A stretch of 64,000 nucleotides of DNA. Origin: Balanoglossus misakiensis (lineage: Eukaryota > Animalia > Hemichordata). The stretch covers positions 8,144,059 to 8,208,058 of the forward strand of contig CM082581.2 of the NCBI GenBank assembly GCA_040954595.2. Direction: 5' to 3'. The position numbers and the translations under genes were made by a program. Shown here in pieces: positions 1 through 47,728 of this stretch (position 1 is the stretch's first letter; every line of letters starts with the position of its first letter). Below the pieces are notes generated by a model. It made no database searches. It worked only from the letters and a program-made list of their open reading frames with translations, and was not told the origin of the DNA.

Positions 1-342
1 GGAAGACAGGCCATTATAAAACAAGGTTCCTCAAATATCTCCAAAATGAGTACATAACTTCACAATAACCCGTCAGAATATCGATCATTCATGTCTTAAA
101 TGGTGTCCATATTTTCAAGTGTAATTTCAAATGATTGCGATTGCGTATGTATACACACGGCACATCTCACAGCACTTACGCATGGTAAATAAATGTAGCT
201 AGTACGTGTACACAGTAGTTCTCATATGCTAAATTTAGATAATTACAAAACTATGGAAAATGGCCGAAACAGCTTGTTAAATTGGAGAAATGGGCCGTCG
301 TAAACGAGGTTCCGCCGGAATGCCGCCCCCGACAGCAGCTAC

Positions 343-566
343 TGACGTAAATTGCCAACACGCTCTCTTTTCAAAGATATCCTGTGTAAGCCCTAACCGC
401 CACACACACACGGTACCGGTGTATGCAAAAGTTCCTGTCTATTCGCGGAATTGGCCGAAGTGAGCTCGGCTATTTTCGGCTCAAGTGGGGATTCCCTGCG
501 CCGGGTCTACCGTAACCATTGAATGTGTTTCGCGTCATCGACCGGACGTTGAGGACACAATATAAA
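343..566 (+). promoter_or_regulatory. Putative inducible promoter of the cytokine-like gene
   Basis: CRE-like TGACGTAA 343-350, GAS-like TTCGCGGAA 442-450, consensus kB site GGGGATTCCC 487-496, half-CRE CGTCA 533-537 and TATAAA 561-566, all upstream of ATG 687. Motifs are seen directly; function is inferred. Confidence 0.6.
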
Positions 567-686
567 GAGCGCTTGTTCACTGGTGAAAGTAACAGAATTA
601 CTAGCAAGCAAGCAAGAACGATCGAACACATCGCAATAGTCCTGCAACCAGAAAACTTCTTCACGACAACTTACCCACGAGAAAAA

Positions 687-2959
687 ATGACAACTTCAAG
701 GAAAATCTACAATTTTGCTGAAATCGGTTAGTTGCAAATAATGTCTGATTATAATCAACTTTGCTCTCAATTTTTTCCCTCTTCGTCGTGGAAATTCTGG
801 TTTGCACTATTTCTTATTATTTTCCAGCCTAACGATAACATAATCTTTCTTCTCCAACAGCGGTTGCAGTGGCCTTAATGTTGGCAACGTTTATCAATGG
901 AGCACCAACTGTTGCCGCCCCAAGTGAAGACACGGTGGCAGATTCCTACACAACTTTGTACCAGAAGACAGTCGCTTTCTATTCGGAACATCAAGAAATC
1001 TACAAAAAATTTGTAAGTATAGTGATCTCATCACTCAGCCGATTACATAATGTGGTTTTAAAAATAGCTGATTTTTTCATTACCGCATAATTAATTGTTG
1101 GATCCGGGAAATACGGGCTGGATTTAGGCTTATAGGTTCTCTTGTATTTATGTTTCAATGTAGTATTTTATTCCACTCTGGACCCGCTCTGATTCAACAA
1201 CATGTGTGTATGTCTGCACAGTTGAGAAACTGGATCACGCGACCGTGTAATGAGGCCACGGACCACGTTGACTGACCCAAATCATAATATTATCCGAGTA
1301 CACAACATGTGGTTGTCCGCTCCCGCGGCTATTCCACTCAGTAGCAGGTTAAAGGCCAAACAAGCGAGACTATTAAATACGCGCGCTGAAGCCAACTTCG
1401 CTTATATTATGAAACACTGTACAGTTTGCATTTACTTGTACATGTATTCATGTTACGGAGATCTGTTGGTGAAGCCGGAAAAAACTTCAAAGGTGTTTGA
1501 TTTTTTCACTTAAAAGAAGCTCCAAATAATGTCACATTTTACACTGAGGGTCCATGAGTTGTTGCGCACTTTACGGAAATCCAGACGTGCAAACTTAAAC
1601 ATTGGGCTTGTTCTGTGGTGTGAAGTCAAGGAGGAAGTCAATTTAGTATTTACTCGCTGTCAGTGGTCGCGAGGAGACACGCCCAGGCACTTTGATACCC
1701 CGTGAGGCCTTGTAGATACACATACGTTCGAATGTTCGGTTGATTTGTCATCAATTTGCCATTTGTGAAAAAGTACACCCGCACGAAACCCAAAAGTGCG
1801 TGGTGATGACGCGATAGTCAACCGCCTTTACAATGAGGAAATCACAGAGCTATTTTTAGCCCAGACTAATACTTAAATTGTCTCCTCCTTTTTTGGTGTT
1901 TACAGAAAAGCATCCGCCTTGACAACGAAGACATCATGGACGATATCCACAGTTTCAATTTCGAAGGTTTGCCAACTCCAGTCTCAAGATTCTTGGCATT
2001 TCGTATGGAGGTAGGCATACCCTGTTCTTTGAACACTTCCATGAACCAAAGACCGAACATTACAAACAGCAACGTCATTTCCTTGAAAGACCCTAAACCG
2101 TTCCCTAGAGCAATACATGCATGCAGCGCATACCGCTTATCAAGGATATGGATGTTCGATTGAAAGCGCGCCCTCTGGTGGCCTCTACGCCGCACCCTGG
2201 TTCCGAATCGTAATACTTCGTAATACTAATAGTACTTCCTCCATTGACTTTCTCTTTAAAACATCTTTTCTTCATTCAACCAACAGGAGAAAGATTTACT
2301 GGTTCTGCACAGAGACAACTTCCAGGCATTCCTGTCCTTTGTCCAGATTATGTACATGGAAGAGTTGGATCACGAAGCTGAGGGTCTTTCAGATCCCTTC
2401 CACGAGGAGTTCCAGGAAATCCGTCATCATCTGAACATCGTCATCAATAATCTCAATTCATTGGTGAGTACACTTACAAACACAATTATTTTGCCATGTT
2501 TATTATTGGTAAATTTACGTCTTGGCGGGTGGTATATGTTTTCTCTATTCAGCAACAGTAAATGACACGTGTGGTTGTATTACTGAGGTCAGCGGCATAC
2601 TGTTTATACGTCCAAAAAAACTTGTGAACTTATATGAAAAAGGTGAAATGATGATGACGATGGAGGTGGTGGTTGTGATTATAGGCGATAGTAGGAGTGA
2701 TGATTATATGATAAAAAAAAATTCTTGCACAATGCAGAATGATACTGATAGTTGTGTTTTCTTTGACTTTGCTCCGCAGCTGCACGCTTTGGGGTACCCA
2801 GACAGTGTTGACACCAGCGAAGACCCTGCCGGTGCTAGCATGCTGAATTCTGTCCACATCCGCGACATCAGACACGTCAAAGTTCTCTACGAGCTCTCCA
2901 ACTACCTGCCCAGTGCAAGGCAACATTTCGAACATCTTGGCAAGAGCTCGACCATCTAA
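687..2959 (+). CDS. Secreted 217-aa protein, putative long-chain four-helix cytokine (IL-6/CNTF-like)
   Basis: Exons 687-726, 861-1012, 1906-2010, 2287-2463, 2780-2959; all introns GT-AG, phases 1,0,0,0, giving an open frame to TAA. N-terminal hydrophobic signal (IAVAVALMLATFING-AP). Four amphipathic segments; the last, HVKVLYELSNYL, resembles remembered CNTF helix D (LKVLQELSQW). The gene model is well supported; the family call is inference. Confidence 0.7.
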
Positions 2960-3822
2960 AGAAAACTGGTGACTTGTCTAGATTTTGTTGGTTCAAGACC
3001 GTACAATTCTGGGTGTTATACATCTACATCTATAATTTTTCTTTGTTCCTCGCCGGTAATGGCCCGAGTATGGTATGTAGAAAAAAAATCAACAGCAACA
3101 TGCGGTTTGTATGCTTCGTTCAACATTCTCATTGCGCAAACAAAATGCAAAAAAATACAATTTTAGAATCATTTTCATCATTCATCCTGGAAAAAAAAAT
3201 AGTTTACAAGTGTACAAAATAACTATCATGTTGCTGGTTGGTTGATATTCTCGTGTGACAGTCATGTGATTGTCACATGAATCTTTGATTCGATCTGGCA
3301 ATATTTGTCAGGTTGTGTCACTGTCGTCAATGTTTGCTTGACATTAATGTAGGGATTACAATCCCATATTAGTCACTTACACACACTAGAACAGAGAAAT
3401 GAACGAATACAAAAAGTAGCTTGATAGTGAATATATTTCACATTTGTGGGTTTATTGAAAATAATACTTGTTAACCAGAACATGTTTATTAATACTTATT
3501 GAAGTTATCGACACTGAAATAGCCAATTTTCAGATCATTTTGAAAATTTATTTGTATGTTTTTACACAAAGACTGTCAGTACTACTACACTTTATCACTG
3601 GAGTCAGTGTTTTCGATTTCATTTACACATTTTAATGTATTGTTGTTGCCTTTCAGTACTATCATTAGGTTTAAGGGACTTATTATTCAGTAATAGAAGT
3701 GCAGTTTTTTCATAAATAATTTTCTCGGACAATTATTGAAGTGTAATATTTATAAATAAGTTGATTTTCCGACTGGTTCTTGCCACTTTTGAAATGTTCC
3801 CGTGCTGTTTGATGAGGTACTA

Positions 3823-4073
3823 TTATTTATTGTGTCATTTTTTGAAAATAATTTTAACAGCCAATTTGGCTTATTTATTGATCTTTTTGGGAGACAAAAG
3901 ATATGTATCATAAAATACGAAATTTTGGCTTGAACATTTACAATACTTCCAAAAGGGCAATATTTATTGTAATATTTATTGATGGATAACAATATGTCTT
4001 TTTTCATAAATTATTGTGGTTACTATTTATGTACACAGATTGTAAATGGTTTGTCATTCGCTCGGAGAATAAA
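3823..4073 (+). promoter_or_regulatory. AU-rich element cluster and poly(A) signal in the presumed 3' UTR of the cytokine-like gene
   Basis: TTATTTATT at 3823-3831 and 3871-3879, TATTTATT twice in 3961-3980, further ATTTA pentamers, and AATAAA at 4068-4073. Confidence 0.5.
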
Positions 4074-4627
4074 TTACCAGAATACATATTTTTAAAATGC
4101 GTTTCTATCCACAATGCTCTTGTGTTGCTTGTGATCCTGAGCGATCAAAGCCCGGGGTCAAATAATTGAGCATACGGGTCACGGCCATTAAAGGACACAG
4201 CATCATGTGCCTATGGTCGTCTTTTAGCCTATTCAAATCGCGGCCAAAGACTCCAAAGACTTTGACGCAGCCGCGACACATGCAGACGACTATATTTTGC
4301 CATCACCATCATCGAATACCACGACGAAATTACTATCTGTATGATTTCTTCCAAACCAGAACGCAACATTAGCCGTAGGCTAGGCGGCCTCTACGTTCAG
4401 CTTTGCCACATGAGGGCGCTTTTGTTCAACAGTCGTTGAACTTCCGGTCGTTTTTGGAGAGAGGAGGTGACTTAGTGGAGTGGCCATAATCTGAGGACTT
4501 GGCGTTCGCCTGAAACTTTGAAGTCATGTTCGTCTTTAGCCAAGCTTTCACTTGCCTATAAAGCAGGTAGTACCCGAAGACTTTATTATTTCCTGTTTTA
4601 TTTTGTTGAAATAGTCAACGTTTCATC

Positions 4628-7600
4628 ATGCAGGCTCAAGCAAACGGCTCCCAGTACGGGTCGCATGATGTCATCTCAGCACATCCGGTCCCTGGCTCTA
4701 CTGGTGGCCATGGGAAATCCACCCCACTGCCAAACAAAATACAGCTAGCTGCCAGATTTGACCCAAGTTCAGACAGCAGTGATTTCTCAACAGACACCAC
4801 CAGCAGCCTGTCATCGGATTCAGATGATGATTCGCGTGAGGCGAGTTTGAGAAGGCCAGGACAGGAACAACAACAATCCCAGCCTTTGCATCATTATCAC
4901 CACCACCATCATCAACAACAACATGAACCATGGTTCCAAAAGCAAGTTTATCAACCTCAGGTTAAAGAGAAAGTACAGCAGAAGCATCTCAGTGTAACCG
5001 AACACAAGGAACATCCTATGCAAACCGATGTTCGAAGGTTTAATGATGGTCACGGATATAACCTATATTCAGAATCCAAACGTTCCAGAGATGGGGTACA
5101 ACTTCTGCCTCCAGTTGCATTCCAGCAAGAAACAAACGGAAAGCCGGCTCCCGGTGGTTATCCATACGCTCAGCCAGTGGGGCAGAAAGGAGAGTCTGGA
5201 ACCATGAAAACATATAACTATGGTTCCATACGAACACAGAGTCCCACATACGGTGGGTATCTGGAAGAGGAAGATGACAAGGTGCAGGATGGAGACCTTA
5301 TAATGCGCAAAAAAGGAATCAGGAGTGAAGACAGGCCAGCAGTGGAAACTGGGCTACAGTACGGCATTCCATTTCCAGGTAAATGTATGAGCGACTTGCA
5401 ATCCCGTCAGATGCCCTCTGACCCCGAGACAGGTATCGCTGATAGTTACAGCCAGGGGTATCCTAGCGTTAGCCAAGGCAGGGATGACACAAGTGTGGAC
5501 AAGGAGCTGTCTGAGCATAGGAGTTTGATTTCAGAGGCAGATACCGGTGACGTTTCGTCTGTGTCTTCAGATTTAAGTGGCGTATCAGGGCTAAGGAGTG
5601 AGAAATCTTCTCGGCACAGAGGTAGGGTTTTCAAGGCAAATGTCATTATGTATATATATACTAGTATCAGGCAAGCTACCCTATGGACATTTTCCATCTG
5701 AATATTACCCACCAATCAGTTAGGAAAGGGTTCAAAATAGAGTTATGATAAGTTTTCACTGTATTGTGTTTAATTTTGACAGGAATTGGCAGAGGCAACT
5801 TCGGTGCCATAAAAAGCAGTGTTGCCCACCTGCAGGTTGGCAACAGCGACACAGTTCCCAGATCTTCCTCTGATACAACAATGACGAACGCCAACAGGGG
5901 AACTGCGAGGCAGGACTCCCAAGACAGCCCGACTGGCGGAAGTAACTCCTCAGAAAACTTCTGCAGGAACAAGTGGCACGGAAAATCCGACTCGGAAGGC
6001 AATCCTCACGGGCAAGGCGGCTACACCTACAGAGGCAAATTCCGGTCAAGGCGCGGGGTGGGCGGCCATCATCACCACCACCACAAAAGCCGGGCGCACG
6101 GAGGGAAGAAGTTCCATCCTAGCAAACACCTCTCCAGGGAAGACAAGTGGACGACTGGTGCGGATGTGGGTAAACCGTCACCGATTAAAACCAAGGCTCC
6201 CGGAGTTGGTGGCCAAGAGTTAATGGACTCTGACCCTGAAACAAAGAAGAAACCCCAGATGTTACAGATGAATGAGAAAGAGTTGCTGCGAACGGAATAT
6301 GATTGGCAGAAGCATAAGATTGAGAGAAAAGTGAAGATGGTAGGTTTAGCACCCATGATGAACTTACAGTTGTTGGTAATGTCAAACAAACCACTATTGT
6401 AGTAGTTTTGTATTGATAAAAATGATTCAAAGAAAGTATTCAGGAAGAAAGTTAACATATTCTATACCGACAAAGTCTTGTTGTTTCATTACAGGTTCTT
6501 AATGGTTTGTCAGAAAACAAAATGTCTGATGCTGTCCATGAGATAGAAAAGATTCTGAACACTGGTAAGAAATATCAGGTCATGTTTTGAATCTAACCGA
6601 GCAGGCTTATATGCAGTTGTCTTTTTGGAACCTAGTATCACCTAACTGATTGGGCATACTTCCCCATATTCAACCATGCTTAATAACTTGCTACTTGTTT
6701 TTCTACTGACAGGAGTTGCAGAGCTAGCCAAGTTTCCGTGGCCCAAACATCTGTTCATTGCGTTGGATGTGATAATCAGCTATGGTGTTGAGGACTCAAC
6801 TGCTCACGATACAGTCTGTATTTTAATACAGCACTTGGAAGGCAAGTCTTCCCATTGGTAGAATAAAACGATCTGTTGCTGTTTTTTTGTTGAGTTGTGA
6901 ATTTCGACTGATTGTACAATGGTAGAAAAGATGGTAAATTGTTTTTCCTGTAATTCTTTGCCATAAAACTAGGTCTTCATGCTGAGGGGTTTGACCAACA
7001 GATCAGCCAGGTTCTCTGCAAGAAAATGGGAGAGTATATCAAGGTACAGTTATTTCTGCCTTCTGTGCAACTTTATGTTGCGAGTGTACCATCTTTGGAA
7101 AAAGGTTCACGTTATTTGTGTGTAAGGGCTAATCAGTTATGTCTAAAAAGATTAAACGTAATTTGCATCATAAACAGTTGACTCACAGAGTGAATGTTTG
7201 CATTTGTCTTTTCTCAGCCATCTGGGGCCAAGGATCAGCAGTTACTGTCGTACAGTAGACTGCTCGGTAAGTTGTATTTGATGGCTGTGATGAGTACATC
7301 GGGTTTGAAGAAACAAGTGTCAGCGTGTGTGCACAGCAGCATTGAAAAGTGGATCAGCTTCAACAAACAGGTATGTGTCACATAGTTATATTATTATATG
7401 TGCAGAGTCATTGAGAATGGGGTGATTGTTCCACACAGCATTGCGGGGCTCATAATTTACAAGTACTCTGCCCTGTGTAACATGAAGTCTAAACTAAATT
7501 CAATTAGCTTCAGGTGTCATATACACAGTGTAGCAACGCTTTTCTGTTCTGTTGATCCTTCAGGGCCAGAACCCACCTCCAGATGTTCTCGAGACGTACA

Positions 7601-10392
7601 CAAACTGTCTGACAGCACTGCTGAAGGTGATTGGAAGTTACTTGGACAGGTGTGAAGAGAAACTGGCTGGCCAATATGTGGATATGATCCGGGAAAGAAT
7701 CCTGACTGAAACTAATGTACCCAGGTAGGAAGAGAGTAAAATGACAAACGTGTGTGGTTTGTATAGGAGTACATGGAAAGTAAATATTTTAATGTACTAC
7801 AGTGACAATTTTTCCTTGTTAAAATTGAGCTGAAGGTTCGTTTTCCAGGGCTGAAGTTCTGTAGAAGTTACTTATAGAAAAGAAAAAACTGCTGGAAAAA
7901 TTTTAATTAAATATTGATATATTTTACTTAGGACAGTAAGAGAGAAGCTGTTAGACTTTTTACTGCTCCGGGCAGTTGGTTGGGACAATCCAGTGTTGAA
8001 GACACATCAAAGTGTGGAGAATATAGCGTTATCTGACACTGGGGTGAATACTGACAGTGTAGACACTGAGGATACGAGTGTTCAAGTTCAAAGCATTGAG
8101 AATCCTGTAGATGTCAAGGATGTTGGTGTTCAAGTTAACGACATTGAGAATGCTATTGTTGAAGGTCAAGGACAGTGTAAGTGTAATAGTATGTCAGCTT
8201 TCAATGGTAAATGATCACTTTCTTAGGAAGACTTTCACTGCTTTTCTTGGCTTTGTCATGTAAATTAACCACATGCAAAAGTGATAGAAGTTACGCGTGA
8301 GGAAAATTATTGCAGTAAAAATAGTTACTCTATTTTTATTCACAGTCACAGCTCCTGACTGTTGTGGGCACCATGCTAACAATGAGACACTGGAACACAC
8401 TGTTCCAGAAACAGAAAAGCCAGTTGCTGCTGCGTCCAGTCCTTACGGTAATGTACGCAGCATGCTGACAGAGCTAAATCTCGAAGAGCAATTCGACAAA
8501 TTTGTGGAGAATGGAATACGGGTAAGAATATCGCTGCCACACTTTCACTCCTGTTTAGATCCAGCTGCTCACTTGTTACCACTTGCTGTAATTTTTCGGC
8601 ATTTGAGGCATTTACATGACACAGACTGCATTTTTTTTAATTCCGCAGGATTCAGTTCTTATGGCCGATTGGAACGATCTGAAATCACTCCTGAAAGAGT
8701 GTGGTTTTCTTCCAGGGACTATTCTAGAAATCCAGATTTACTTGAGAAACAAAAGTAAGTGATTAAACAGCTAAACAAATTCTACCCCCCCCCCCCCCTC
8801 CCCATTTCCCAAATCCTTGAACTCTCTTTGCAGTTCTTGAAAATTAAAAAGTCGGTGTGGCCTTCCATAATAAACATAAGCTACTTGTCAATATGTGATG
8901 CATCCCTCCTCTTTGACCAGGACAAAGTGATAACTACCAGAAATTGGATTCAGAGATTATGTCAGCCCCAGGCAAGGACAGAAAGAAGGTGGTTCCACTA
9001 TCCACACAGCAGCCAGGTGTAAACGCAGCTGTGAACCTGGCAATGGCCGCAAAATGTCTCCCGACTTCTATCATGATCAGTGGTAGACACGTTCTGAGTA
9101 GTAATGGAGGTGACAATATCCAGGGTAATGTCACTTCAGCTCAATGTCTCAGTGCAAAGGAAACATGCGCAGCTGTTGGTATTACTGCAGAGAAGGAGGC
9201 TGTTGTGTCAGAATCAGCCGAACATGATGATGAAAATTGGGGCAGATGTGAAGAAGAGGAGGTGGAAAATGATGATGTTGTGTGCAGTGCTGTTGTTAAT
9301 GATGAAGATGATGATGGTGGTGGTGGTGGTGACAACAACGTTGATACTGTTGATCTGTGTGGCGATGGTACTTATGATGCTTGTGTTGATGCTGCTGATG
9401 CCGATGCCAATGATGATGATGCTGATGATGATGGTAGTGATGATGATAATATCGAAAGAAGCTCTGGTACCTATGTTGGTGAGATCAGTGGTGGTTGTGA
9501 TCGTGCACCCGAGGACCAAGCTGCCTTCAACAGTGAAGTGTTAGCAAACATGTCTGAAGAAGCAAGAAAACTGATCCAGAGAGACGCCACGCTCAGAAAG
9601 CAGATGTTCCATCAGCAGCCTCCAGAAGGCAAGCCGCCAGGTGGAAACCTTAAAACTGGAACAAAATCTGCAGTGGTTACTGAGGAAAATCCATCCACTA
9701 CTACAGAGAGACACAAGGGGCGTAACATCAGTGAGTGGAATTATCAATCTTTACCTGTAAGAGGTCACCAGAGTGTGGATGCTGTGAGATCACACTCGTC
9801 TGATGGGGAGAGTAAGACAGACAAGAACGACACCAAGGCGGGATATCTCAAGTATGACTTGTCGCCAAGAGCGATGAAGAAAATGCAGTCACGTCAGCGA
9901 GACACAGTTGAAAGTCAGTCAGATTCTTTGCATGGTTATGGCAAGCATGATAAAGTCACTACCAAATATGCAACTCGTCACCCTGGTAAAGCAAGCTCTA
10001 CGAAAACATTTCACGCCACTGAAAACCAGAAGAAGTCCCCCGAAAAGCAGCCAAGACAGGTAGATGGTGTCACGGGCCATCATTCACCACCAAAATCTAA
10101 GAAATCAAACCGTCTCCGCGGCTGCGAGATTTGCGGCAGCAACAGCCACACCCTGAGGGCATGTCCGGTTTTCTGCAAATACGCCCCAAGCTCTCGCAAA
10201 CACAAGGGTGAAAATCCCGAAGAGGAATCGGAAAGCGTTGCCACGCCCCTTGACAGCAGCGAAGGAACCTCAAGCGGGGATGACACGATGGCCACTGCCA
10301 ACTTTGGCGTGCGCAGGGTTTGCAGTGTGTGTTCCAAGCCCGGACATTCCACGTTTCACTGTCCAAAGAAGTTCAACAACTTTTTTCTTTAG
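4628..10392 (+). CDS. ~1377-aa protein with MIF4G domain, SAM-like domain and two CCHC zinc knuckles (putative RNA/translation regulator)
   Basis: Exons 4628-5621, 5783-6339, 6495-6564, 6713-6841, 6973-7043, 7218-7370, 7564-7724, 7932-8176, 8346(or 8352)-8521, 8649-8754, 8921-10392; phases consistent, 4134 nt total. MIF4G-type motifs: RKVKMVLNGLSENK, SRLLGKLY, NCLTALLKVIGSYLD, REKLLDFLLLRAVGW. SAM-like: VRSMLTELNLEEQFDKFVENGI...LKECGFLPG. Knuckles: CEICGSNSHTLRAC and CSVCSKPGHSTFHC. AATAAA at 11094. Confidence 0.75.
9295..9450 (+). repeat. GAT/GGT-rich trinucleotide low-complexity tract (poly-Asp/Gly) in the last exon of the MIF4G gene
   Basis: Runs of gatgat and ggtggt encoding NDEDDDGGGG and DDDADDDGSDDD. 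Confidence 0.7.
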
Positions 10393-11998
10393 CTTGTCAT
10401 GCCATATATCGAAGGTAGTTTTTGACTTTCATTAACTCCTTTTTGAGTGCAAGTACCACACACTTTCCCTGTGACCCACCGCATCACCTGACTGTTGGTT
10501 TGATTTGGGGGTTTAAAAAAATCCCAGACACACTTTGTATGATAGTTACGACAGCTTGCATTCACGCAAATTTGAACCAGTTATCTCAACACATCGAGAA
10601 AACTGGTTTTTGGAAGGTTAAATAAACTGGTTGTCACGTGATGGTTGTGTAAACAGTGGTCACACTGAAATAACATAAAATGGAGGCCGTCTTTGCGCTG
10701 TTGGGATTTCTGATGTGAAGTTGCATGATAATCGGTGGTTGTTGGATTTGTTCTTGTTAGTTGTTAATTAATCTGTCTACGTTATCCTGAACACCCCTGG
10801 ATGAATAGAAATTCACAGATTCAGTCTGTGGGATTTTGGTATAGAAGAAACTGCCATACTGCTGGAAGGATTGTCAACACATCTTTGACAGAAAATCTTG
10901 TTTTGCCCCAGTGAAAAGTATTTTGTTGTGTTAAATGTATTACGGTATAGTCATTTACCTAGAATTCAAGCATACATAATCATTAATGTTCCAAGCATAC
11001 TTTGATACAATTTTCATTTCATAAACCTTTGTTTACACCAACTCTGTTAGAATACATTTCAGTTATGTTACATTTACCTTTTTTGGAACTGTTAATAAAA
11101 GTTAAGACAACTTAATGCATTGTAAGGCTATTTTTGTTCAAATAAGACACTGCAAAACAATTTAGGTTTGGTGCACTGATGAAACATTGTTGCAAAGAAA
11201 TTTAGTATGTCATCTCCACCAGAAATGAAGATGTATTTTTAATTATTATACCCAGAGGCAGTGTGGGTTAACACATTCCAAACCCTTATGTGTAGCAAAC
11301 ATCCATCGTATGCTATCTAACAGTCCATAAGAAATTAGTAAACCACAATATAATATTTAAGATTTTATTTCAAAATACAAATATTAAATATATATTCAAT
11401 AAATAGAAATTAAAAGAAAATTGAAAATGAAATTCTGACATACATAACAAAAAAATTGTCAGCCAAATAATGTGTGGCTCTTTGGTTTCATAATTAAGAA
11501 TAACATTCTGATTAAAATAGCAAACTGATAAGCTCCTTCCTTGGCAAAGTTCAGGAGTACATATTCATGGCAGTTGTCTCAGATCAGGTGACAATATTTC
11601 TCAAAGACTCATCACTAGAGGGCAATGTTCATCCCAGCTTGACGCACTCTCTGTATAAACGGACGGAGCTTCTCAATAGCAAAAGCACTGGTTCATAAGT
11701 TTGTCCTTCACTTTTCAATAGTGCAGGCAATCTGTGGGAGACGTCATGGAGCTTTCTGTAATTGAGAATGAACAAGAAGATGATGAGAATATGACGCATT
11801 TGACTGTATGGTCGGGTGTAGCTGTGGGACTTCAGCATTTGCAAGGACGGTGGTGGAAAATGTTTGAATACTTTGACAGTGAGGCTTTCATTAGAAGAAT
11901 TTCCAATTCAGTCCAGGATGTACCAAGTACCAATACAGACACAGACAGATGAAAATTTGATGAAAATTTAATATGGAATGACATAAAAAATAACTTAC

Positions 11999-23702: not shown

Positions 23703-26700
23703 ATGGCGGCGACGACATCTGGAACTAGTCCCGACCAAGATGTTATCGAGAGCGTTGTGAATTACGTAAAATCAGCGGGACTTTTTGATCAGTTTCGACG
23801 AGACTGCCTGAATGATGTTGATACAAAGGTTTGTGCTCCGTTTTGTGGTTTGGTTGTTATCTATTTTGCATCGTATCATTTTTACCAGAACAGTACACAC
23901 AGATTCATTAGGCTGTCTGGACACCTGGTTATCTCGAAATCGAGTATGGGCAGCATCTACATAGGTGTAAACTGCATTGTGGCCGTGGAGAGACGGAACG
24001 TGTCTGTGTTTTGAAACATCGCTTGCGCTGGTGGAAGCACGCCCCCTACGATTGAATGGCACGGTGCGAACAAAATACTTTGAACTTGAACGTGAAGAGA
24101 CTGTTCATCTTCGACAACAAAGTCAATGTAGCTTGAATTCCAACTATGTTCAACAATGCAAGCCAGTTCGAGTGAACTTGGTGAGTGAGTTTAACATAAA
24201 AAATCTTCTACTGCAGTTCTTTATTGAAATTATTTTTAAATCACAGCCAGCTTATCAGAACTTACGGCAAAGAGTGGAAGGATATGTTTCCACCTTTCTG
24301 TCTCAGCACACCTGGTCTCCCAACCTTAACAAGAACCAGCTACGTGACAGTCTCAGAAGACAGATAAACCAGTAAGTATCATTTTTGTATATTAAAGTGT
24401 CTTTTGGGAAAACATAAAGGCAACAATTTTGAAAATGCAGTGTTCTAGGCCCTTGACGCTGTGACGCTTTTTATGCTCAGCTGTCAACTGTGACTGTTGC
24501 TGCTTTTTCCGTACGCTGCTGGTCGACACCCTCAGAGCAGTCGAATATCACGTCACATATCAGAACATACTCATGTGGAATGTCTATCTTTGTCTCTTGT
24601 AGGTCAGAAATGCTTTCTATGGGTGTAGAAAGAATCGTAGAGCAGGTTGTAGAACCCAAAATTCAACACATCTTGAGACCACAGATTGAAAAGGCACTCC
24701 AGGAGTACACCGAAAAGAAGGAAAGGGAGGCACCTCCAGTGCCAACAACATCTGATGATGGCAAAGCTGCCTTGCCACCTTTACCTCCACATACCACAGG
24801 TAAAAAGAATTGCATTATCTAAATATAATATAATCTAAATATCATCTAAATGTAACTTGCATAATGATGTTAAATAATATTTTCATCATAGGCACTCCGC
24901 CAAGCACCAAGACCAAGGTCAAAGGTGTGTCAGAGAAGTTGCCGCCAGATGTTGTTTCCAGGGTGAAAACAACTACAAGTGGCGAGCAGGCAAAGAAACA
25001 GTCGACAGATAGCGGGGGACCGTCTGAGATCAAGAGTAAGTTGAAAGATGGCAGTGCTGCTAAACCGAGCAAGGATGTCAAGAAAGGCACGGGGAAGGTA
25101 CAGGAGAAATCAAAAACAGGAACCGCCAAAGGTGTATTGCCGAAAACTGGTGAAGCTAAGAAATCGGAACAGGGATCTGTCAAGGGAAAAGTGGGAGAGT
25201 CGGATAAAGGCGGAAGTGGCAAGGGAGAATCCCACTTGAAGACAAAAACGTCAGAGTCGGGCGGGAAGCAGGCGGAGAAGTTGGAGAAACCCAGGGTGGG
25301 AGACGTGTCCCACAAAGCCAAGGGTGAGCCCGGCACAAGACCGGCAGACAAGCAGAAGGCATCCGTCAGTGATAAACCAGGGAGTCGCAAACCGGATCAG
25401 AAGGGAGCTCCTGTGAAAGATGATAAGATGAAGGATAAAGCAGAAGGAAAAGGAAGCGTTAAAGAAGATAGGCTGAAGTCAGATAAAACGGAAAGCAGTA
25501 AGACAGAGCATGTAAAATCCACCGAGAAGTCTGAAAAAGCGAAATCAGTCAAACCTAAGGATGGCTCTGAGAAGAGTCTGGTTGTGACTAAAAAGAAAAC
25601 TGACAAAGTGCTGAAGACACTCAAGGATGATAAGGCAAAATCAAGCAAGTCGGAGGTTTCCTCTGAGAAGAAAGGTGGTGCTGAGGTCAAGCCAAAGAGC
25701 TCTACTGAAGGAAAAACTGCCAAAGACGGTGGGAAAAAAGAAAAGCCGAAAGATGTTAGCAAAGACAAGAAGGCACTCCCTAGCAAGGATAAGGAGGGGG
25801 CTGGTAAGCCAAAAGACCCGGCAAAAGGCAAGTCTGATGTGAAAAAGAAAAGTGAAATCAAACCGAAGGCATCCGAAACGAAACAGTCCGAGACAAAACA
25901 GAAAACAAGTGATAAAAGAGATGAGACTGCAAAAGGAACAAGTGAGAAGAATGAAGATGGCGTGAAAGGGAAGTCGTCAGCTGCTTCTGTCAAGAAAGAA
26001 ACCAAGAAAGACATAAAGAAAGAGACCTCTGACGTGAAACCGGACAAGTCTAAAGACAGCAAAAGTCAGCAGTCTTTCAGAGAAAGCGTTTCGCAGAAAG
26101 CAGAGGAAACACACAAACCTGAAAAGGTGGCATCAGGACTTGAACAAAAGGACACAAGTTCCGAAATGCAGACCGCACCACCAGCTGAATTAAAAGTCAC
26201 GACCCCGGGCGTGGAAAAGCCAGAGTTGTTGAAAACTGAGGATGAGAAAAGACAGGATGGCAAGAAAGTGGCGTCACAATGTGAAAAGGGCGAAGAAGTC
26301 CCAACAGTCGGGAAGAAAAGAGAATTGGAACATCACGATGGTGACTTCTCAGACGATGATAATATGTCTGATGTCACTGTGAGTTCAGTGCATACGAGCG
26401 ACCTTTCTTCCTTTGAAGATGCAATCAGTTCTGTTTCATCAGTGTCATCCACTAGTAGCGATGAAATGTCATCCGATGAAAAAGATGGTAACTATACATT
26501 TTTTATGATCTCAATCCTTGGGGTCCATGCATTGCCCCTGTTTCACACACTATCTGTACATTCAACTCTACCCCTATATATTTCTCGTAGTGTAGAAATA
26601 AAAAGACGGTACTCTCTTAGTAAATAATGTAACTTAACTTTAGTTTTAAACACAAATCATGTTATTAAATCTAACCACCAAAGCTTTAAACTTGAACTTG

Positions 26701-28776
26701 AAAATCTCAACAGCAAACATAACCAGCAAGTTTCAATTTGATTTGTTGCCCTTACAGACACAGATAGATCATTAAACAGAAGCAGAGACTCTCCCTTTGG
26801 AAGCATCAGTGGTGACTCTGAGAAGAGTGGGCTGACTAAACGGAGGCCATCAACCAAAGCCCTGGCTCTCAACCGTTACTATAGCGACAGTGAAGATGAG
26901 GAGGCCCGTGAAGAGAGAAGAAAGAAAGCGGTAAGTTGAAAGCCACCAATTTTTTGGGGTGAGCACTTGCTTGTGCAGTAGTCCACCCTTTATCTTAGAC
27001 AACAATAAAGATGGTTGTGAGAGGGTTATTGTCAGTCTGCCCAGAGAATAAGAAATGTTACCATTCCATCAGCTTGAGTTTGATGTGAATCTTACATAGT
27101 AGGAACACTGCATTCACAGGCAAAGGAGAAGGAAGAACGAGCAGCCAGGAGGCAGCAGATAAAGGAAGACATGAGTGAAAAATTGAAGCAGTGTGAAGAA
27201 GAAAAGAAGAAGAAGAGAGAGGATAAGAAGAAAGTCAAACAGGAAGCCAAAGAGAGAGAAGGTATGTTAGCTTGTGTCCCTCACCTTTCTGTGAAAAAAA
27301 AATACAATATTACTACAAAGGTTGTATGTAACAAACTACTGTACAAAACAATAGGATTATAATTTGATTGTCTTTCATAGAACCATATTTGTGTTTTGTC
27401 TTGCAGAGGCTGAAAAGTCTGGCAGAAGGGGTCGCACCAAGGAGCAGAAGAAAGAGGAAAAGGTCCAAGCCAAGAGAGAACAGAAGGTGCTGGAGAAGAG
27501 AATGGCTCTGCGGAGACAGCGCACGCTGAACAAGAAATATCTCTCGGAGGATTTCACGTCCTTGTTCTCCCAGAAGGAGCCCACCTTCATCACAGGAGAC
27601 GCTGAGTCCAGTGATAAGCAGACGTCTGATTCGAGCGAAAAACAGACATCTGACAGCCCTGCGGCTACTGCTCCTGAAGACTTTGAAGTTCCAGCCGTGA
27701 GGAAGCGGAGTTCTTCGAAAGAATCGGAAGAAAGCGTTACGGCTAAGGCGTTTTTCGTGTCCCATGTACCGGATGTGGGGCCGTCGTATGAGCAGACGTT
27801 CATAGCCAAGGCCATGGAGTTAGGGAATTACAGTTGTGGACTGCGTCGCTCTGGAAGGAGGTCCTGTAATTCGACGGACGCTCCTTCGGGTGAACCGGGG
27901 GAGCAGGGTCTCCAGCTTCCTCCGACGAAGCGAGGTCGTCGAACAAGCAGCGCTTCGGGGTCGTCCTCCGATCACTCTTCGAGTAAAGGACAGCTGCTGG
28001 ACAGCCAAGGTGGCGGTAAAGATAAGGCAGCTTCAGAGAAAAAGGAAGAGAGTCATGGGAGAGAGGCGAAGGAATCTGCGGCGGATGCGGAGCCTGCCGA
28101 GTTGGCGTCCCCGCCCACACCGACCCAAGACGAGCCGTCGTTCCTCGAGGGGGCGAAAGAGGAGGCTGTTGTGGCAACTGCGGGCGATTCCCCGATCCCA
28201 ATCTACAGCCTCCCTTCTCACACGGACCAGCAGCAGTCGCCTCTGAAGTCCATTCCGCTGGCTGCCTCTGATACCTCGAGCAAGGACAGTTTCGCAGGAA
28301 AAAGCACGGAAGTAGAACCGCATGATACGAGGGGGCGCGCGTCTCGGTTGGAAGACCAAGGAAAATGGGACGAACCGTCCAAGTCGGACGATCGTCCCGC
28401 GCGACATCACAGAGAAAGACGCGGTCAGTCTTCGCACCATGAGGGCCAGTTTTACGAGAGGGACGGCAGCAAATCGCCCGGGGCCAGTCGCGACATCCGC
28501 CCGAGAAGGCAGTCCAGCAGAGAACACTACAAACCCATGTCCGACCAGTTTGACTACTACAGCGGCAAGAAACCCCAGCACACCAAAGAGGAGGAACCCA
28601 GACGGAGATACTCCTCCCACTCGCGGGAGAGCCGATCGCGCAACTCGCCCCCACCGAGGGAGAGCAGGTTGCGAAACTCGCCCCCTCCCCGGGAAAGCAG
28701 ATCTCGCAAGAGACACGCATCACCACCGAAAGATCACAGAGCATCAAAATATAGAGGCTATTCTTACAGGCGATGA
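23703..28776 (+). CDS. BOD1L1: BOD1-like protein (biorientation of chromosomes 1-like; N-terminal Shg1/BOD1 domain), 1242 aa
   Basis: Exons 23703-23828, 24247-24371, 24603-24799, 24892-26487, 26758-26930, 27120-27261, 27407-28776 (3729 nt, in phase). Motifs KSAGLFDQFRRDCLNDVDTKPAYQNLRQRVE, LNKNQLRDSLR, SDVTVSSVHTSDLSSFE, YYSDSEDE...AKEKEER, KVLEKRMALRRQR. Confidence 0.9.
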
Positions 28777-31308: not shown

Positions 31309-34300
31309 TCAGTCATCTGGTATGATGGTTATCGAGAGACGTTTGTTTGGCCATGTAAAATGCTTTGGTAGCTCTATCTGTAGACGGAAGAGGAGAAACA
31401 AAATTTAGAGATGAATCCTTCCTAAGTTCCAAAAAAATACTAGTAGTCAGTTCTTGTTTATTGGGAAACAGCAGTTTTGCTGTATATAATATATGCCCAA
31501 TAAGACAATCAAATTTTCCTTCAAGACATCATTCATTTTTCTCAGAGCAAGGAGGATGAAAACAATGGAACCTACTTCACTTGGATTTGTGAGTACATCT
31601 AAGTCTTCTACAACAGAGTCTAGGTCATCATCAGTGATGAGTATCTAGAATGAAATGAAATAAAACATGATCTGTTACTGGTGTTAGGAAGTTAAACAGG
31701 TTCAATGTTATATTATAGAAGTATGCTCATGTACACATATTCAACAAGGTGCCAAGACTTTAGCTCTTCGAGGGAAATTGCTATTTTCCCCAGTCATTTG
31801 AACTTCACCTATTATCTTATGAATGCTGACTTACTTGTAACCATGGTCCGTGCGCAGCATAGCGATGCGTTTCATCGACAATGGACCCTTCCACATGCGG
31901 GGACACTAACGTTACCGCCACATCTCCGGTGATGCTTTTGAAAGTAAAATGGCGACCGTGTTTGAGTCTGCCCCTTAAATCCAGACGAGAAAACAGAAAC
32001 TGGATTAGTCCAATTGAACAATACATTAAGTACACTTGCCATTGAGTTGTCTTGAACAATTCTCATCATATTCCTAAATCTGTAAACGTTTGCAATTGAC
32101 CTACTTGAGTGCCAAGGGTAAGAGAGCCCCAGCTTCCATGTTGAACTTTAGCTTGACTCCGTCCACTGATCTTGTCCTGATCAGCTCCATTGAACTGCCT
32201 TCAATGTCACTTTCTGAACTGCCTCCCAGCGATGGCTTCCTATTGTCCAACATATCTTGGTTGCTAAGAAACCAACAGAGAAATGATAAGCATCACAATA
32301 CATGTAATTCACTTTTTAAATAAAATGAATAAGTTACTAACAAAGAATATATGTCTACAGAACAAAAAATTCACAAATTCAATGGCATTTTAAAAAAGTG
32401 AAAAAATGGCAGCAATTCCACTTACCTATCTCGCTCGTGCCTGATACTGGACGTTTGACTTTGCTGTATTGAAGGTAACACTGCTTTATCTTGCCCTAAG
32501 CCCCTTTGCAATGTGGCTTTAATTTGTTCTGATTCTGAAACACACATGGAGAAATCATCAGATCCAGTCATATGGACCAAACACCAAATAAAAACACTCA
32601 TCTGTGACATCCTATATGTGATTTCTCCATATGGTTAGTCTCACTGAGTTTTCATAATGCTGTATTACTTTATGTGGCTGTCATTTTGGAAAATTCAAAG
32701 AATTCAAAAATGTCACTGTACAATACTTCCTCTGTACAAAACTCACCATATCTCGAAATATGGGGTGCATTCTGCTCAGTTCCACTGCTTTCGCCAGAAA
32801 AATCATCCCATTCTTCCCACGAACACTTTGCGCTGACGCCGCTCAGGTTGGAGCCATCGGTCTCGATCCCACGATCCACCATTTCTTGTAAGTGTGGATC
32901 GATGTCAAAGATCGACTCCCCTCGCCTCATGTCAGTGACCAGCCATGGACCACCAGCACTGTAATGACGCAAGAGAAAATTTGCTGTGATGTAGTGAGTG
33001 CCTAGTCAACGTGCGTGATGATTTAGTGTTTTGATCTTGACATATGCATTGATTTTGTTCAAGTATTCCATTTTCAAAGATGACCACAAAACTAACTTTC
33101 ATGGCTACTTTAGCTCTCTACTTTCTCTCGAACCTCTTGACATTCTGATCACCTACCCAGGTGTTTTACGAATCAAATCTAAAACTGCAGGACCATTCCA
33201 GTGTTGAGCAGCCTGCAGCTCTTCGTTGCAAACTCCTAAAATCTGCAAGACAGAACAGAGTAGTATGTGTGGTTGGCGCAGGTCTTTGGAAATTTCGCAG
33301 TAGAAATTAATACAGTTTAATATCTTGCAGCCATTATGAATGTGACGAGTGAAATATGTTGCTGATGTCTCAAATACCAGGTGTAAATTTTACCTGAACA
33401 AATTGCACGGTGCCAAACTGTGTGACTATTGGGGGAAGCTGCGGGTCTTCTGCCATCAGCATGTGATTGACGCGGGATTCGCTGTTGTCCAGTGGGTTGT
33501 GCCACGACACGTGATCTCCGCTACAGAACACATTCTCTGAAAAGTTACAAGGGTTGGGGTTACCACGATACATTATGACCTCCTCATAGCTAATTAGAAA
33601 TAAGAAAAGAAGTTTTGATCTGCGCTGAACATGTAATTTAACATCCAAATGATTTACCTGACTGGAACACATATCGTGCCAATCCCTGCATCAGCTCTGC
33701 TGGCCACGTCGGCGGGGCAGTTTCTGTTGGCTCCCTTTTTAAACGAAATGTCAATTCAAAACCAAAACCACTGGGCCCTTCACCTCCAGTGAATCTATGT
33801 GTAGAGAATAAAATCAAATCCAATGAGTATATTATTATTATTATGTTACCATCTCAGGAAAAGAAATAGCATTTTCTTTCTTCAGTAACACTCATATCGA
33901 AGACTTGAAATATACTATACTTACTCATGTACTCTTCCGTCGCCATGGAGATCAGTTAGTCCAAAACTCACATAATGCCAGTGAGGAAGAATGCCCCTTT
34001 CTGGGACTCCAGGATTAGCATACATACTAATGTAATCTAGCGGGTCAGGACCACCTAACCTGCAACAGAAAACATGAAAACAATACGTACATTACATGTT
34101 TGTCATGGTAGCTCCATCCTCCATGGTCAGATGTTGTAGAAAGTGAGTCCTTGGGGAAACACCTGGTATAATTATAAAAGCGGTACAGCATGTAAACAGT
34201 GTTACGTGTATGAAAAGTATGTTTACTTGAACAAGCAACATCCTTGTGTCAGCATCATGTCAATTGGGTCCCTGTACACTCCACTAAATTTGTTTCTTGC

Positions 34301-35291: not shown

Positions 35292-35903
35292 TTTCACGTT
35301 CGTCTGAGAAACCTAAACAAGGCTGTTCCATTCAATAGTTCAACCCCACCGAAATCTTTAATCATTGCTAACTTGAAGCTCACATGAAGCCTGCATATGA
35401 AATTAGCTGGATGCAGTGGGCGAAAAATGTTTGATTTTCTTTTTGTTTTGTCATATAGTTAGTAACCATTGGCTTCTTGTCTATTCGCTGAGGACATCAA
35501 GACCAAACGCAGCCCTTCGTCTGCTCATGGAGGTACTAGTACCTCCATGGTCTGCTTTCCCATCGACTTACGAAATCGCATAGATCAGTGGGAGGTACAT
35601 AGTTTAAAGAAGCAGCAGAGGACTTCCGTTCTCACCAACAAAGACCACCCACGTGTTATTGAGAATTTAGCATTCACTTATACACTTTTCCTTGTTAAAA
35701 ACAATAAAAGTAAAAAATATATGCTGAAGTGTGGATTTTTATCAAATACTTCAATCAAAGTTTCATTATAGGAGCAAATCCAATATTCCCAGCATGCCAA
35801 AGTAGCAACAATGATGTCATTGATCCACGCATGCGTACCTCTCTGTGTCAATTTCCAATGATAGCCGATGGAAAACTGAAAATACAGGAATAATTTGCTA
35901 AAA
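35292..35903. promoter_or_regulatory. Bidirectional promoter region shared by SUFU and ACTR1A
   Basis: 612 bp between the divergent start codons; ZNF143/SBS-like TTCCCAGCATGC at 35786-35797; 24-bp palindrome at 35526-35549. Confidence 0.65.
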
Positions 35904-39530
<3,627 letters not shown>

Positions 39531-44369: not shown

Positions 44370-46879
44370 TCAGTAATTCTCAGCCATCATGAGAATCACC
44401 AGTGAGGACCAGCCCGTGAACGGATGTGACCCCTGACCCCGGCCGGTTGTATCGTTGTATTGCTCCCACACGTAGCCCGAGCGGTCGTACTCTCGCACCA
44501 TGTTGGTGATGATGCTAGTCCTGAGTTCTGAGTAAATTTCGCCGGCCTGGCTCCGATACGGCCCCTCCGTGTTGGCGTAGTGGTGCAGTGCCCTCACAGT
44601 CAGGTAGTTCATGTTGATCCAGATCTGGCCTCGCCAATATGGCGGGTCGTGCTCTGTGTTGTACTTGGCGTACAGCGGGTCTGATTTGGACAGCGATCGC
44701 AGGCCGTACCTGGTCCACAGCAGTTTGGGATCTCGGATGTCTGTCAGGATTTTCCCCAGTTTTTCCGACGACGGGTCGATCACTTGTAAGAGGAAAGGAA
44801 ACAGGCTAACATAGCCCAGTGCACTGACGTGTTTGTACGCGGGTCCGTTTTTGGATTTGATGGCGCGCACCATTGGGGGTTTGGGGACGTTTTGCGGTTT
44901 TCGCTGCCCTCGGGGCTGCGGTACGGGTGTTGGTGATGGCGGTCGTTCCAGCATTACGTGATCTGAGTGGTTGCCATAGTCACTGTACTGTTTCCCTTTG
45001 GCAGACCAGTGCAGTTTATCGAGGAGCGCATTATCCGTCAAAACTTCGTGCGTCTGCTGATACTGCTGATGCGGCTCTCCGATGGTCTTCGCGATGTCGG
45101 TCATGACTCCGGAAGCGAGAGCGATCCAACACCGCAGATCGACGTGCCGTTCGTCGTCCGAAGGGTGCGAGGCGCGCGGATAGTCATCCAAACCAGACGT
45201 CAGCGTTTTGGGGTTCAATTCTTTGTCGGTAGTGGCATCTCTGCCCCGCCACCTGTACGACGTCGGAACGTTCCCGAGCTGAGTCGTATTGAACCAGTTG
45301 AACCAGACTTTCAATCTCGGGTACATGCGCTTCAGGAAAGCCTGGTCGCTTTCATCGGTGCTCTTGACAAGCTCCTTCATCAGGGACTGAATCGGCAGGA
45401 ACAGCGTCGGCGGGTTGGCGTTCTCGTTGTACTGCACGACGAACTCGGTCGGCACTTTGGCGCGCGCCTCGTTTCCCAGGATCTGCTCTCGCGGGATCCA
45501 CCCGTCCACGTTCATCAGATCGATCCAGTGGCCGATGATCTCTTTGCTGATGCCGGGATCCCACTTGCTGATTAACAGGTTGTGAAACCCCTCGTCCCAC
45601 AGAAACCCGCGGGGGAAGAAGGAGCGAGACGGCACGGCCGTGTACAGCGGCGCGTCCCAGTACTCGACGGGCTCGTCGTTATACCGTGACTTCACGATGG
45701 ACTTCCCGTAGAAGTAACCGATCCCACCCACCAGGTTACTCAGCGTGGCCTTGGCAAAGTTCATGTCTTTCTCTTTGAAACCCTTCTTCTTCAGGTTGAA
45801 TATCTTTTCGAATTTTTCGTCAAAATTTTGAGAGTGATGCGTCAGCAGCTTTGTGAACTCTGGTCCAGCCAGGACTGTCTGCCGAGCAGCGTGGCTGCCC
45901 GACTCGAAGACAATGTTCACCTCAAAGGGCAGCGCGACAGTAATTTGGTGCACCAGGAGATTCGGCTCGTAGTCGTGAAACTGACTCTGAGACAAAATAT
46001 CCCCCACAAGTCCGACCATATTCTTGTTCTGCCCGAAGGGATAGTACTTCATACTCCGGTGAACCACTTCCTTGATGATGTGAATACTCGGCGTGTAGGT
46101 CCTCAAGAAGTTGGACTTCTTTGTGTTCTTGGCCCTCGGGAATTTAATTGTGAAGTCGCCCAGCTCTTTTGTATTTCCTTCAATAGTTGTCATCCGAGTG
46201 CCCTCCACTATTGGCTCCATCTCTCCCTGGCCATCAGTTGCAGCATAAAACATGATCGACACAATAGTTTTGTTTGCAGCTTTATTCTGAAATTCAAAAT
46301 AAAGGGGAAAAAAAAAGAAAAATACAAGAGAGTTAATCATTAAAATTCTCCAAAAGACTGGCCTGTGTATAAATAAAAATATTATACACCTTGTATGTAT
46401 GGATTGTCGCATTAATGTTTGATGGTCTCTCAACCCCACTGTGTTATTATTTTAAGGAAGTGAAAGGTTATATTTACTAATTATTAAATACATCTATGTG
46501 TGGAGTTCTGATTGGCTACCCAATCAGACAAGGAAGGAACATTTCAGATAAAGTGTCCCACTACCAGTTTTAATATTTAACAGTCAGACAGTTACAAAAT
46601 TATACATTGAATGACTAACAAAAACTGCTAGGAGGGACCATGACAATTATTGTCTCCACTCAGAATTGTTTCTGTGTGGTTTCCATAACCAAATAGACGT
46701 ACATTTTACCACAGACTATTAATGTTTTTATACAGTTTTATTGGGCGATTATGATTCCACAGCAGGTGTTTCTGTAAACAGATAAAGCTAGCCTCAACGT
46801 GTAATGATGGTTTCCATATTGTACGTTTGTTTAGATCATAAGAATTGTTTTATTCATTCATTCATTCATTCATTCATTC

Positions 46880-46927
<48 letters not shown>

Positions 46928-47728
46928 TACCTTGGCTTTTCCACTGATGCGGACAGTCCAATCACCACCATGCTTCCCCCCTGGTCGTTTGACGAATTCT
47001 GTCATCAACGTGAAATTTTTGTCGACAATCTCTTGACTACCGAAGTTTATGCCGTCGTGCCTAAGCCAGCCGTATTTTGGCAACTTGTCCGACTGTTCAC
47101 ACGTGTGCCGGATGGGCAAAGTCCTCTCGCGCGTGAACTGGGTGAACCACATCAAGCCGGTCACCATACTTTCCGGGGTCCGTGTCTTCATCCCCCAATA
47201 CACGCCGGGTCGGTACGTCCCCCAGTACCGTTCCGGGGACATGTTGGCCGCCTCCTCTGGGGCGATGACTCGCGGCAGGTCAAGTGGGGAGTAGACCCGC
47301 GAGGCGAGAACGTGTCTGTACCAAAAATAGCCCACCGGAACGCACCCTATTAGCACTATCAAAACAAAGGTGCGAAACCCGATCGGCGGCGAATTTCCCG
47401 GCTTCAGGTACTTTCCCACGTCGATTCCATCTGGTTGCCGGTCGCCGACACTCTCGTCGCTCTCACGACGCACAGCCCGCCGATTTCTCACCATGTCGAC
47501 GTTCTGATCAAAGATATCATCACTGAAATCGGCAGCAGGAGGTATATTTCTGTCGACCTCGTCTTGGTCACTTTCGCCCGTCGTAATGCCGCTGTTTTCC
47601 TCGTCCACGAGATCTAGTAGATCGCCATCTTGGGTACACAGCGATCCGGCTTCTGATTGGAGGAAATCGTGCGGCTGCTCGCCGTCACGATCGTCCGTAT
47701 TCATGCTAATATCATCTGAATCAGACAT
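44370..47728 (-). CDS. MOGS: Mannosyl-oligosaccharide glucosidase (ER glucosidase I, GH63), 904 aa
   Basis: Two exons, 47728-46931 and 46286-44370, joined by a phase-0 intron. Type II TM segment FVLIVLIGCVPVGYFWY; motifs WGTYRPGVYWGMKTR, LYTAVPSRSFFPRGFLWDEGFH, TLTSGLDDYPRA, ERHVDLRCW, YWRGQIWINMNY, PFTGWS. Confidence 0.96.
46852..46926. repeat. Compound tetranucleotide microsatellite (ATTC)n(AATC)n in the MOGS intron
   Basis: Direct reading of attcattc...ttcaatcaatc; it begins right at the minus-strand splice donor (46930). Confidence 0.9.

Follow-up and report, generated by a model that had tools for sequence, protein, structure and literature searches.

A likely NF-kB-inducible, IL-11/CNTF-like cytokine gene and its predicted promoter in the acorn worm Balanoglossus misakiensis

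A 64,000-nucleotide stretch of the Balanoglossus misakiensis genome (GenBank assembly GCA_040954595.2, contig CM082581.2, positions 8,144,059–8,208,058; hereafter the window, numbered from its first letter) contains, close to its start, what is likely an NF-kB-inducible, IL-11/CNTF-like cytokine gene of an ambulacrarian that, by the features tested, is no orthologue of IL-6. That a real gene with a cytokine fold is present here together with its promoter we regard as highly probable, and on balance we favor the reading that positions 343–566 are the promoter of a five-exon gene for a secreted cytokine of the gp130 family (IL-11/CNTF-like), which is switched on by NF-kB after infection or injury.

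Gene structure and relatives

The gene lies on the plus strand. The coding part of exon 1 (687–726) provides the start of the signal peptide and is followed by a phase-1 intron, exon 2 (861–1012) the remainder of the signal peptide and helix A, exon 3 (1906–2010) the A–B loop, exon 4 (2287–2463) helices B and C, and the coding part of exon 5 (2780–2959) the C–D loop, helix D and the stop codon. The spliced frame has GT-AG borders and intron phases 1/0/0/0, and specifies 217 amino acids, none of which is a cysteine. The length falls within the range of 150–280 residues expected of long-chain class I helical cytokines. A hydrophobic stretch at approximately residues 8–27, common to the family, is read as the predicted signal peptide.

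The closest relative is an uncharacterised protein of P. flava, XP_070541380, which aligns from end to end with 126 of 218 columns identical (58%) and covers all five exons, with 5/13, 21/51, 26/35, 36/59 and 38/59 identical residues for exons 1 to 5, respectively. Since identity to the P. flava protein extends to every exon, it independently confirms both the splice model and the choice of start codon. The same protein was the one identified with exon 4 as query, among 26 candidates. When 1.84 billion representative sequences were searched, eight proteins were returned at E ≤0.001, all of them uncharacterised (two from Ptychodera, three from Glandiceps, two from Saccoglossus and one from Asterias), and a profile search added proteins from Patiria and Acanthaster as well as two unnamed ones. 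The Glandiceps members are LOC144450721, LOC144446726 and LOC144446683, those of Saccoglossus LOC100374483 and LOC100374329, and that of Asterias LOC117303514. The relatives that the sequence searches found were confined to acorn worms and sea stars, with no named fly or mollusc protein among them.

In a tree of 14 rows, the protein of the window pairs with the P. flava protein with support values of 92/97, which is below the bar set by the tool, while the sea-star proteins and the two unnamed ones form a clade supported at 100/100. The family has expanded in acorn worms: consecutive accessions in Saccoglossus suggest a tandem pair, and within a Glandiceps pair and a Ptychodera pair the two members come from contigs of equal length. 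There is no paralogue within the 64-kb window. When metagenomes were scanned with the P. flava protein, none of the 195 matching stretches was confirmed. The introns of the gene contain PU.1/ETS-type GAGGAAGT boxes at 1630–1638 (intron 2) and 2234–2242 (intron 3); the PU.1/ETS-type pattern has eight panel matches in the whole window.

Predicted fold and relationship to known cytokines

The fold was modeled with AlphaFold for the P. flava relative, using an alignment of eight sequences, and this model stands in for the protein of the window. The best of the five models has a pLDDT of 78 and a pTM of 0.71, and is the only one to exceed a pLDDT of 60, the other four having scored 45–57. It predicts a signal helix followed by four long helices in the topology of a cytokine, and the exon boundaries follow the helices of the model.

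Comparison of the model with 48,161 chains using VIA-align places IL-11 at rank 1 (Z 19.8, rmsd 2.2, 163 residues aligned), followed by CLCF1 (Z 19.3), CNTF (17.8), LIF (16.9) and IL-27 (16.8), i.e., the first five ranks are all occupied by ligands of gp130. Lower Z scores were obtained for placental lactogen (16.6), OSM (16.5), IL-6 (16.4) and growth hormone (14.1); interferons reached at most 12.1, and the best non-cytokine 8.5. With Foldseek, the best 49 matches are all long-chain helical cytokines or hormones, with prolactin first, and no match was obtained at E 0.001. At the sequence level, a profile of 13 family sequences has CNTF as its best match among PDB sequences, covering helices B–D (E 0.003). 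The Pfam CNTF model was touched below its cut-off by two of the 12 family proteins scanned, and no family member passed a Pfam cytokine cut-off, the best score being 19.7 bits for CNTF against a required 22.7. Queries with single exons or with the P. flava protein yielded nothing meaningful in Pfam or among PDB sequences. In the ESM Atlas, clusters for IL-6, prolactin, LIF, IL-11 and CNTF were retrieved behind a mollusc-dominated cluster of 114 members, of which 11% carry Pfam IL6 (top feature match 0.95).

The predicted fold of the relative is thus nearer to IL-11, CLCF1 and CNTF than to IL-6. These three proteins are the best fold matches, with structural alignments of 11–14% identity. Like IL-11, which lacks cysteines, the acorn-worm protein is cysteine-free; unlike CNTF, which has no signal peptide, it has a predicted one. 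Furthermore, as predicted from the DNA and from protein homology, its gene has the first intron within the signal peptide and three introns of phase 0, an arrangement for which the phase numbers of vertebrate IL6 serve as the reference. Five exons are also usual in growth hormone and prolactin genes. The distribution of the helices over the exons fits the five-exon layout described for IL-6 genes (bioRxiv 2026.04.02.716188).

Two other labels were considered and rejected. An IL-6 orthologue is contradicted by the lower rank of IL-6 in the fold comparison (Z 16.4) and by the cysteines, as IL-6 proteins including those of lampreys and hagfish have two to four conserved cysteines (bioRxiv 2026.04.02.716188), compared with none here. 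An interferon or IL-10 (class II) assignment is at odds with the phase-1 first intron, as the intron phases of interferons are 0-0-0-0 (bioRxiv 2026.05.30.728932), and with the interferon Z scores of at most 12.1. Among the downstream neighbours, five genes were recognized by Pfam, none of which belongs to the TOMM7/IL-6 block, in a comparison where four of ten open reading frames had no Pfam match and the upstream side falls outside the window.

Drosophila Unpaired (PMC13203501) and the mollusc cluster of the ESM Atlas are invertebrate ligands, or candidate ligands, for domeless/gp130-like receptors, and invertebrate ligands with such a fold are therefore not unprecedented.

Motifs and predicted core promoter upstream of the gene

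The original prediction had listed five motifs within positions 343–566, and all five are present where it had placed them, 120–345 bp upstream of the five-exon gene. Their chance levels, assessed with 20,000 dinucleotide shuffles of positions 291–590, differ widely. The strongest element is the kB decamer GGGGATTCCC at 487–496, approximately −104 from the predicted start, whose exact sequence is unique in the 64 kb and was reproduced in only 9 of 20,000 shuffles; the strict kB consensus has four sites per 64 kb and occurs in 559 shuffles (2.8%). The CRE-like 8-mer TGACGTAA at 343–350 (about −248) matches the full CRE palindrome at seven of eight bases, with eight sites in 64 kb and 376 of 20,000 shuffles (1.9%). 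The GAS-spaced TTCGCGGAA at 442–450 (about −149) is non-canonical: it fits the loose TTCN3GAA only, matching neither of the high-affinity STAT patterns TTCCNGGAA and TTCYNRGAA, and this loose class has 29 sites in 64 kb and appears in 1606 of 20,000 shuffles (8.0%). On the opposite strand the site reads TTCCGCGAA, which we take to be a Drosophila STAT92E site, an identity that was given no weight because confirmation in the literature was not found. The half-CRE TGACG (533–537, minus strand) was rejected as evidence, being indistinguishable from chance with 105 sites in 64 kb and occurrence in 10,921 of 20,000 shuffles (55%). The TATA box TATAAAGA (561–568, plus strand, with TATAAA at 561–566) is located 126 nt before the ATG and only 64 nt beyond the kB site; it fits TATAWADR but not TATAWAWR, and the TATAWA class is found in 1348 of 20,000 shuffles (6.7%).

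The kB, GAS and CRE classes occurred jointly in 2 of 20,000 shuffles, and all four classes including TATAWA in none; of the 123 TATAWA sites in the window, the one at 561 is the only one with kB, GAS and CRE within 250 bp upstream. As the motif classes were taken from the observation itself, these joint numbers are post hoc, and a panel of 14 patterns for inducible elements was therefore scored instead, made up of short consensus patterns, each given a weight according to how rare it is in the window. A panel score as high as that of 291–590 (3.97) occurred in 26 of 10,000 shuffles and in 2 of 211 other 300-bp tiles, and positions 201–500 form the top panel window among 179 non-overlapping peaks in the 64 kb; without GAS the result is weaker (187 of 10,000 shuffles). 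The stretch 1876–2175 inside the cytokine gene scores 5.44, higher than 291–590, and comparable panel scores therefore also occur outside promoters. Elsewhere in the window, a perfect CRE at 14016 accompanies CCAAT boxes in the interval separating two other genes, and another strong kB site is located at 60223, so that neither CRE nor kB is specific by itself. The kB, GAS, CRE-8 and TATAWADR patterns are absent from the 500 bp before the ATG in three neighbouring genes, which is a small control with unmapped promoters. The motif load before the cytokine candidate thus exceeds chance, and this excess is carried mainly by kB and CRE with no contribution from the half-CRE. Of the five elements, the kB decamer and the TATA box are the strong ones.

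Transcription is predicted to start at 590–594 on the plus strand, either at T590/A591 or at C593/A594, as deduced from a TATA spacing of 30–33 nt. The pyrimidine–purine step T/A at 590/591 lies 30 nt past the start of the TATA box, and the sequence from 541 to the start codon at 687 is free of ATG. A start near 591, giving a 96-nt leader, is likely and agrees with the earlier proposal of approximately 590. With the motifs preceding a conserved start codon, and with the fold of the relative matching cytokines, the placement of 343–566 in front of a cytokine gene is upheld: very probably, a real gene for a long-chain helical cytokine has its proximal promoter in this segment.

Additional patterns were noted in this region. 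A motif form AAAATGGCCG, presumably similar to a YY1/PHO site, recurs in direct and inverted copies at 255–268, 449–459 and 466–477, and ATGCAAAA at 423–430, between CRE and GAS, is one base off the octamer ATGCAAAT. No tandem repeats overlap the promoter.

Comparison with the vertebrate IL6 promoter

Vertebrate IL6 served as the model for the original prediction, which described the motif set as an IL-6-like promoter grammar. The likeness is partial. As in the vertebrate IL6 promoter, the predicted layout has a kB site some 100 bp from the predicted start, a CRE farther upstream and a TATA box, in identical order. The spacing is wider than in human IL6, where kB is positioned at roughly −70 and CRE at roughly −160, compared with about −104 and −248 here. 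Unlike the vertebrate promoter, that of the acorn worm lacks AP-1, and no C/EBP site separates CRE from kB. For AP-1, there is no TGASTCA in positions 1–4100, a stretch that includes 686 bp before the ATG. For C/EBP, neither the panel pattern nor two looser patterns match in 291–590, and the sole match there to a third loose pattern, at 581, is downstream of the TATA box. Weak C/EBP-like matches to a loose consensus are present at 242–251, outside the interval originally described, and at 282–291; they are considered weak because the loose consensus has 33 matches in the window. The panel likewise gave no ISRE match in 291–590.

IL-6 induction has been reported to proceed via NF-kB, C/EBP, CREB and AP-1 (PMC3027602). 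The absence of AP-1 and C/EBP from the 300 bp before the predicted start therefore makes the grammar that of a generic kB-inducible promoter, and a likeness to IL6 in particular is not supported. The combination of kB, CRE and TATA is common to many primary-response genes. As read from the motifs, it is fairest to speak of an inducible promoter of the kB type, with IL6-like applying only loosely. In the pig, the core IL6 promoter from −191 to −59 depends on a p65 site, and mutation of the kB site abolishes induction by LPS (PMC6206029).

The kB site of the acorn worm is probably functional, and for the CRE-like site the chances of a function are slightly below even. Feedback by STAT through the GAS-spaced site, which the original prediction had considered, would depend on one non-canonical site and is doubtful; in this respect too the promoter differs from vertebrate IL6, for which PMC3027602 gives no known STAT3 site as of 2010.

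Presumed 3′ untranslated region

A predicted polyadenylation signal, AATAAA, is present at 4068–4073 on the plus strand, and on this basis we chose 2960–4100 as the limits of the presumed 3′ UTR. Within it, an AU-rich cluster of six TATTTAT motifs spans 3747–4030 (plus strand), where shuffled sequences contain 0.56 on average (p 0.0002, 5,000 shuffles). Six such motifs are reached by only one of 104 other tiles, which holds a tightly spaced run near 54.7 kb. The shorter ATTTA is not enriched in the presumed 3′ UTR (9 compared with 5.4, p 0.087). A hairpin with an 11-bp stem and a UAU loop is predicted at 3291–3315 (plus strand, −10.9 kcal/mol). It was found post hoc and is matched by 2 of 3,000 shuffles and by 3 of 104 tiles; its stem forms in context, with a probability of 0.55 for the closing pair, and we take it to resemble a decay element of the Regnase-1/Roquin type. 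Several adjacent hairpins are seen at the start of the 3′ UTR (3200–3420), including a long one at about 3255–3284. An Rfam search of positions 1–4300 gave one match at chance level (E 0.66). The AU-rich cluster and the hairpin together suggest that the mRNA is inducible and short-lived. In fish, cytokine mRNAs usually carry instability motifs (PMC3271213).

Other features of the window

Downstream of the cytokine gene, long open frames without a Pfam match are located at 4628–10392 (plus strand), with a Cys/His spacing similar to that of zinc knuckles near its end, and at 11832–13133 (minus strand). A mitochondrial carrier gene at 15950–20236 (plus strand) is read as mitoferrin-like, a gene with a COMPASS-Shg1 domain at 23703–28776 (plus strand) as BOD1L-like, and a glycosyl hydrolase 63 gene at 44370–47731 (minus strand) as MOGS-like. 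A SUFU-domain gene (32670–33005, minus strand) and an actin-family gene (35900–39182, plus strand), the latter probably ACTR1A, face apart on opposite strands, a head-to-head pair that presumably exists likewise in human 10q24. Between the minus-strand gene at 11.8–13.1 kb and the carrier gene, the perfect CRE and two CCAAT boxes at 14016–14110 probably mark a TATA-less promoter. At 60022–60232, approximately 200 bp separate a canonical GAS (TTCTTGGAA) from a strong kB site, with no open reading frame of at least 110 amino acids nearby; this may be an enhancer.

Discussion

In the mechanism that we propose, sensing of microbes or damage would activate Rel/NF-kB, and a Rel/NF-kB dimer would bind the kB decamer, some 65 bp upstream of the TATA box, and promote TATA-directed transcription from a start near 591. 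CREB/ATF-type bZIP factors at the CRE-like site could add an input from stress or cAMP, the AU-rich elements and the stem-loop in the 3′ UTR would bring about rapid decay of the mRNA, and the secreted four-helix protein would act through a gp130/domeless-like receptor on JAK-STAT signaling, perhaps with weak feedback through GAS. All steps beyond the sequence and the fold are inferred. Since the modeled relative is predicted to fold like the vertebrate cytokines IL-11 and CNTF, the gene would likely provide an infection-inducible signal of the IL-6 family outside vertebrates.

Parts of such a pathway are present in acorn worms and sea stars. In Saccoglossus, terms for NF-kB activation and deactivation are enriched 4 h after poly(I:C) (PMC10210618), and in challenged sea stars two gp130-like genes shift in the direction of the IL-17-like genes, with log2 fold changes of 3.2 and 6.8 (PMC13597471). 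IL6R-like receptors have been reported in hemichordates and echinoderms (PMC13203501), and Ciona has a known gp130-like receptor (PMC1963337).

The fold comparison is also compatible with a real helical cytokine or hormone (CNTF-, CLCF1-, LIF- or prolactin-like) that serves mainly development, nerve or tissue maintenance and whose promoter receives cAMP or stress signals by way of the CRE, with kB in a minor role. CLCF1, CNTF, LIF and placental lactogen stand alongside or above IL-6 in the fold ranking, prolactin is first in Foldseek and CNTF is the best sequence match, the five-exon layout is shared with growth hormone and prolactin genes, and 291–590 contains no ISRE, AP-1 or C/EBP match. 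However, the kB decamer is the rarest of the motifs and is placed close above the TATA box, and the AU-rich cluster and hairpin speak for a transient, inducible message; we consider a role mainly in development, maintenance or hormone signaling rather improbable.

It is less probable still that the core promoter with its TATA box works alone and that the upstream motifs are fortuitous, picked out post hoc in a promoter rich in GC and CpG. Positions 280–600 have 51% GC and a CpG observed/expected ratio of 1.24, single motif classes occur in 2–55% of shuffles, and two of 211 tiles score equally high; yet the panel score is equalled in only 26 of 10,000 shuffles, although these preserve the dinucleotide content, 201–500 is the top window in the 64 kb, and the gene was picked by protein features independently of the motifs. 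Finally, the true start could be farther upstream, preceded by a non-coding first exon, with the motifs acting as an intronic enhancer or serving an unseen divergent gene, and the visible sequence before the ATG amounts to only 686 bp. Against this stand the canonical distance of the TATA box from a pyrimidine–purine step and the lack of any ATG from 541 to the start codon, which make such an arrangement very improbable. We retain the NF-kB-switched promoter of an IL-11/CNTF-like cytokine gene as the preferred reading.

A BLAST-based survey from 2026 that included hemichordates and echinoderms places IL-6 in vertebrates only (PMC13203501), and a structure-guided preprint of the same year extends it to lampreys and hagfish (bioRxiv 2026.04.02.716188), with no occurrence of the words invertebrate, hemichordate or echinoderm. 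Of two further reports, one describes an invertebrate screen for the interferon fold only (bioRxiv 2026.05.30.728932), and the other covers IL-1 (PMC13736523). No earlier description was found among open papers, and a prior report may exist. An IL-6-like molecule from the sea star Asterias forbesi is cited from 1996 (reference in PMC4503460).

The gene itself carries most of the interest, and the promoter motifs by themselves are modest. Together with its relatives in Ptychodera, Glandiceps, Saccoglossus, Asterias, Patiria and Acanthaster, the locus provides candidate ligands outside the chordates. The promoter and the 3′ UTR give hints, independent of the protein, that transient expression coupled to NF-kB may be equally old. 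A wider reading, which we put forward tentatively and hold to be clearly less probable than its converse, is that acorn worms and sea stars possess an unannotated gp130-family cytokine with the full inflammatory logic of vertebrates (kB and TATA to switch on, decay through AU-rich elements and a stem-loop to switch off, and feedback by STAT), that it was inherited from the deuterostome ancestor, and that their gp130-like receptors have in it the ligand hitherto missing. If this is true, the IL-6-like activity described from Asterias in 1996 would have a candidate gene in the sea-star orthologue.
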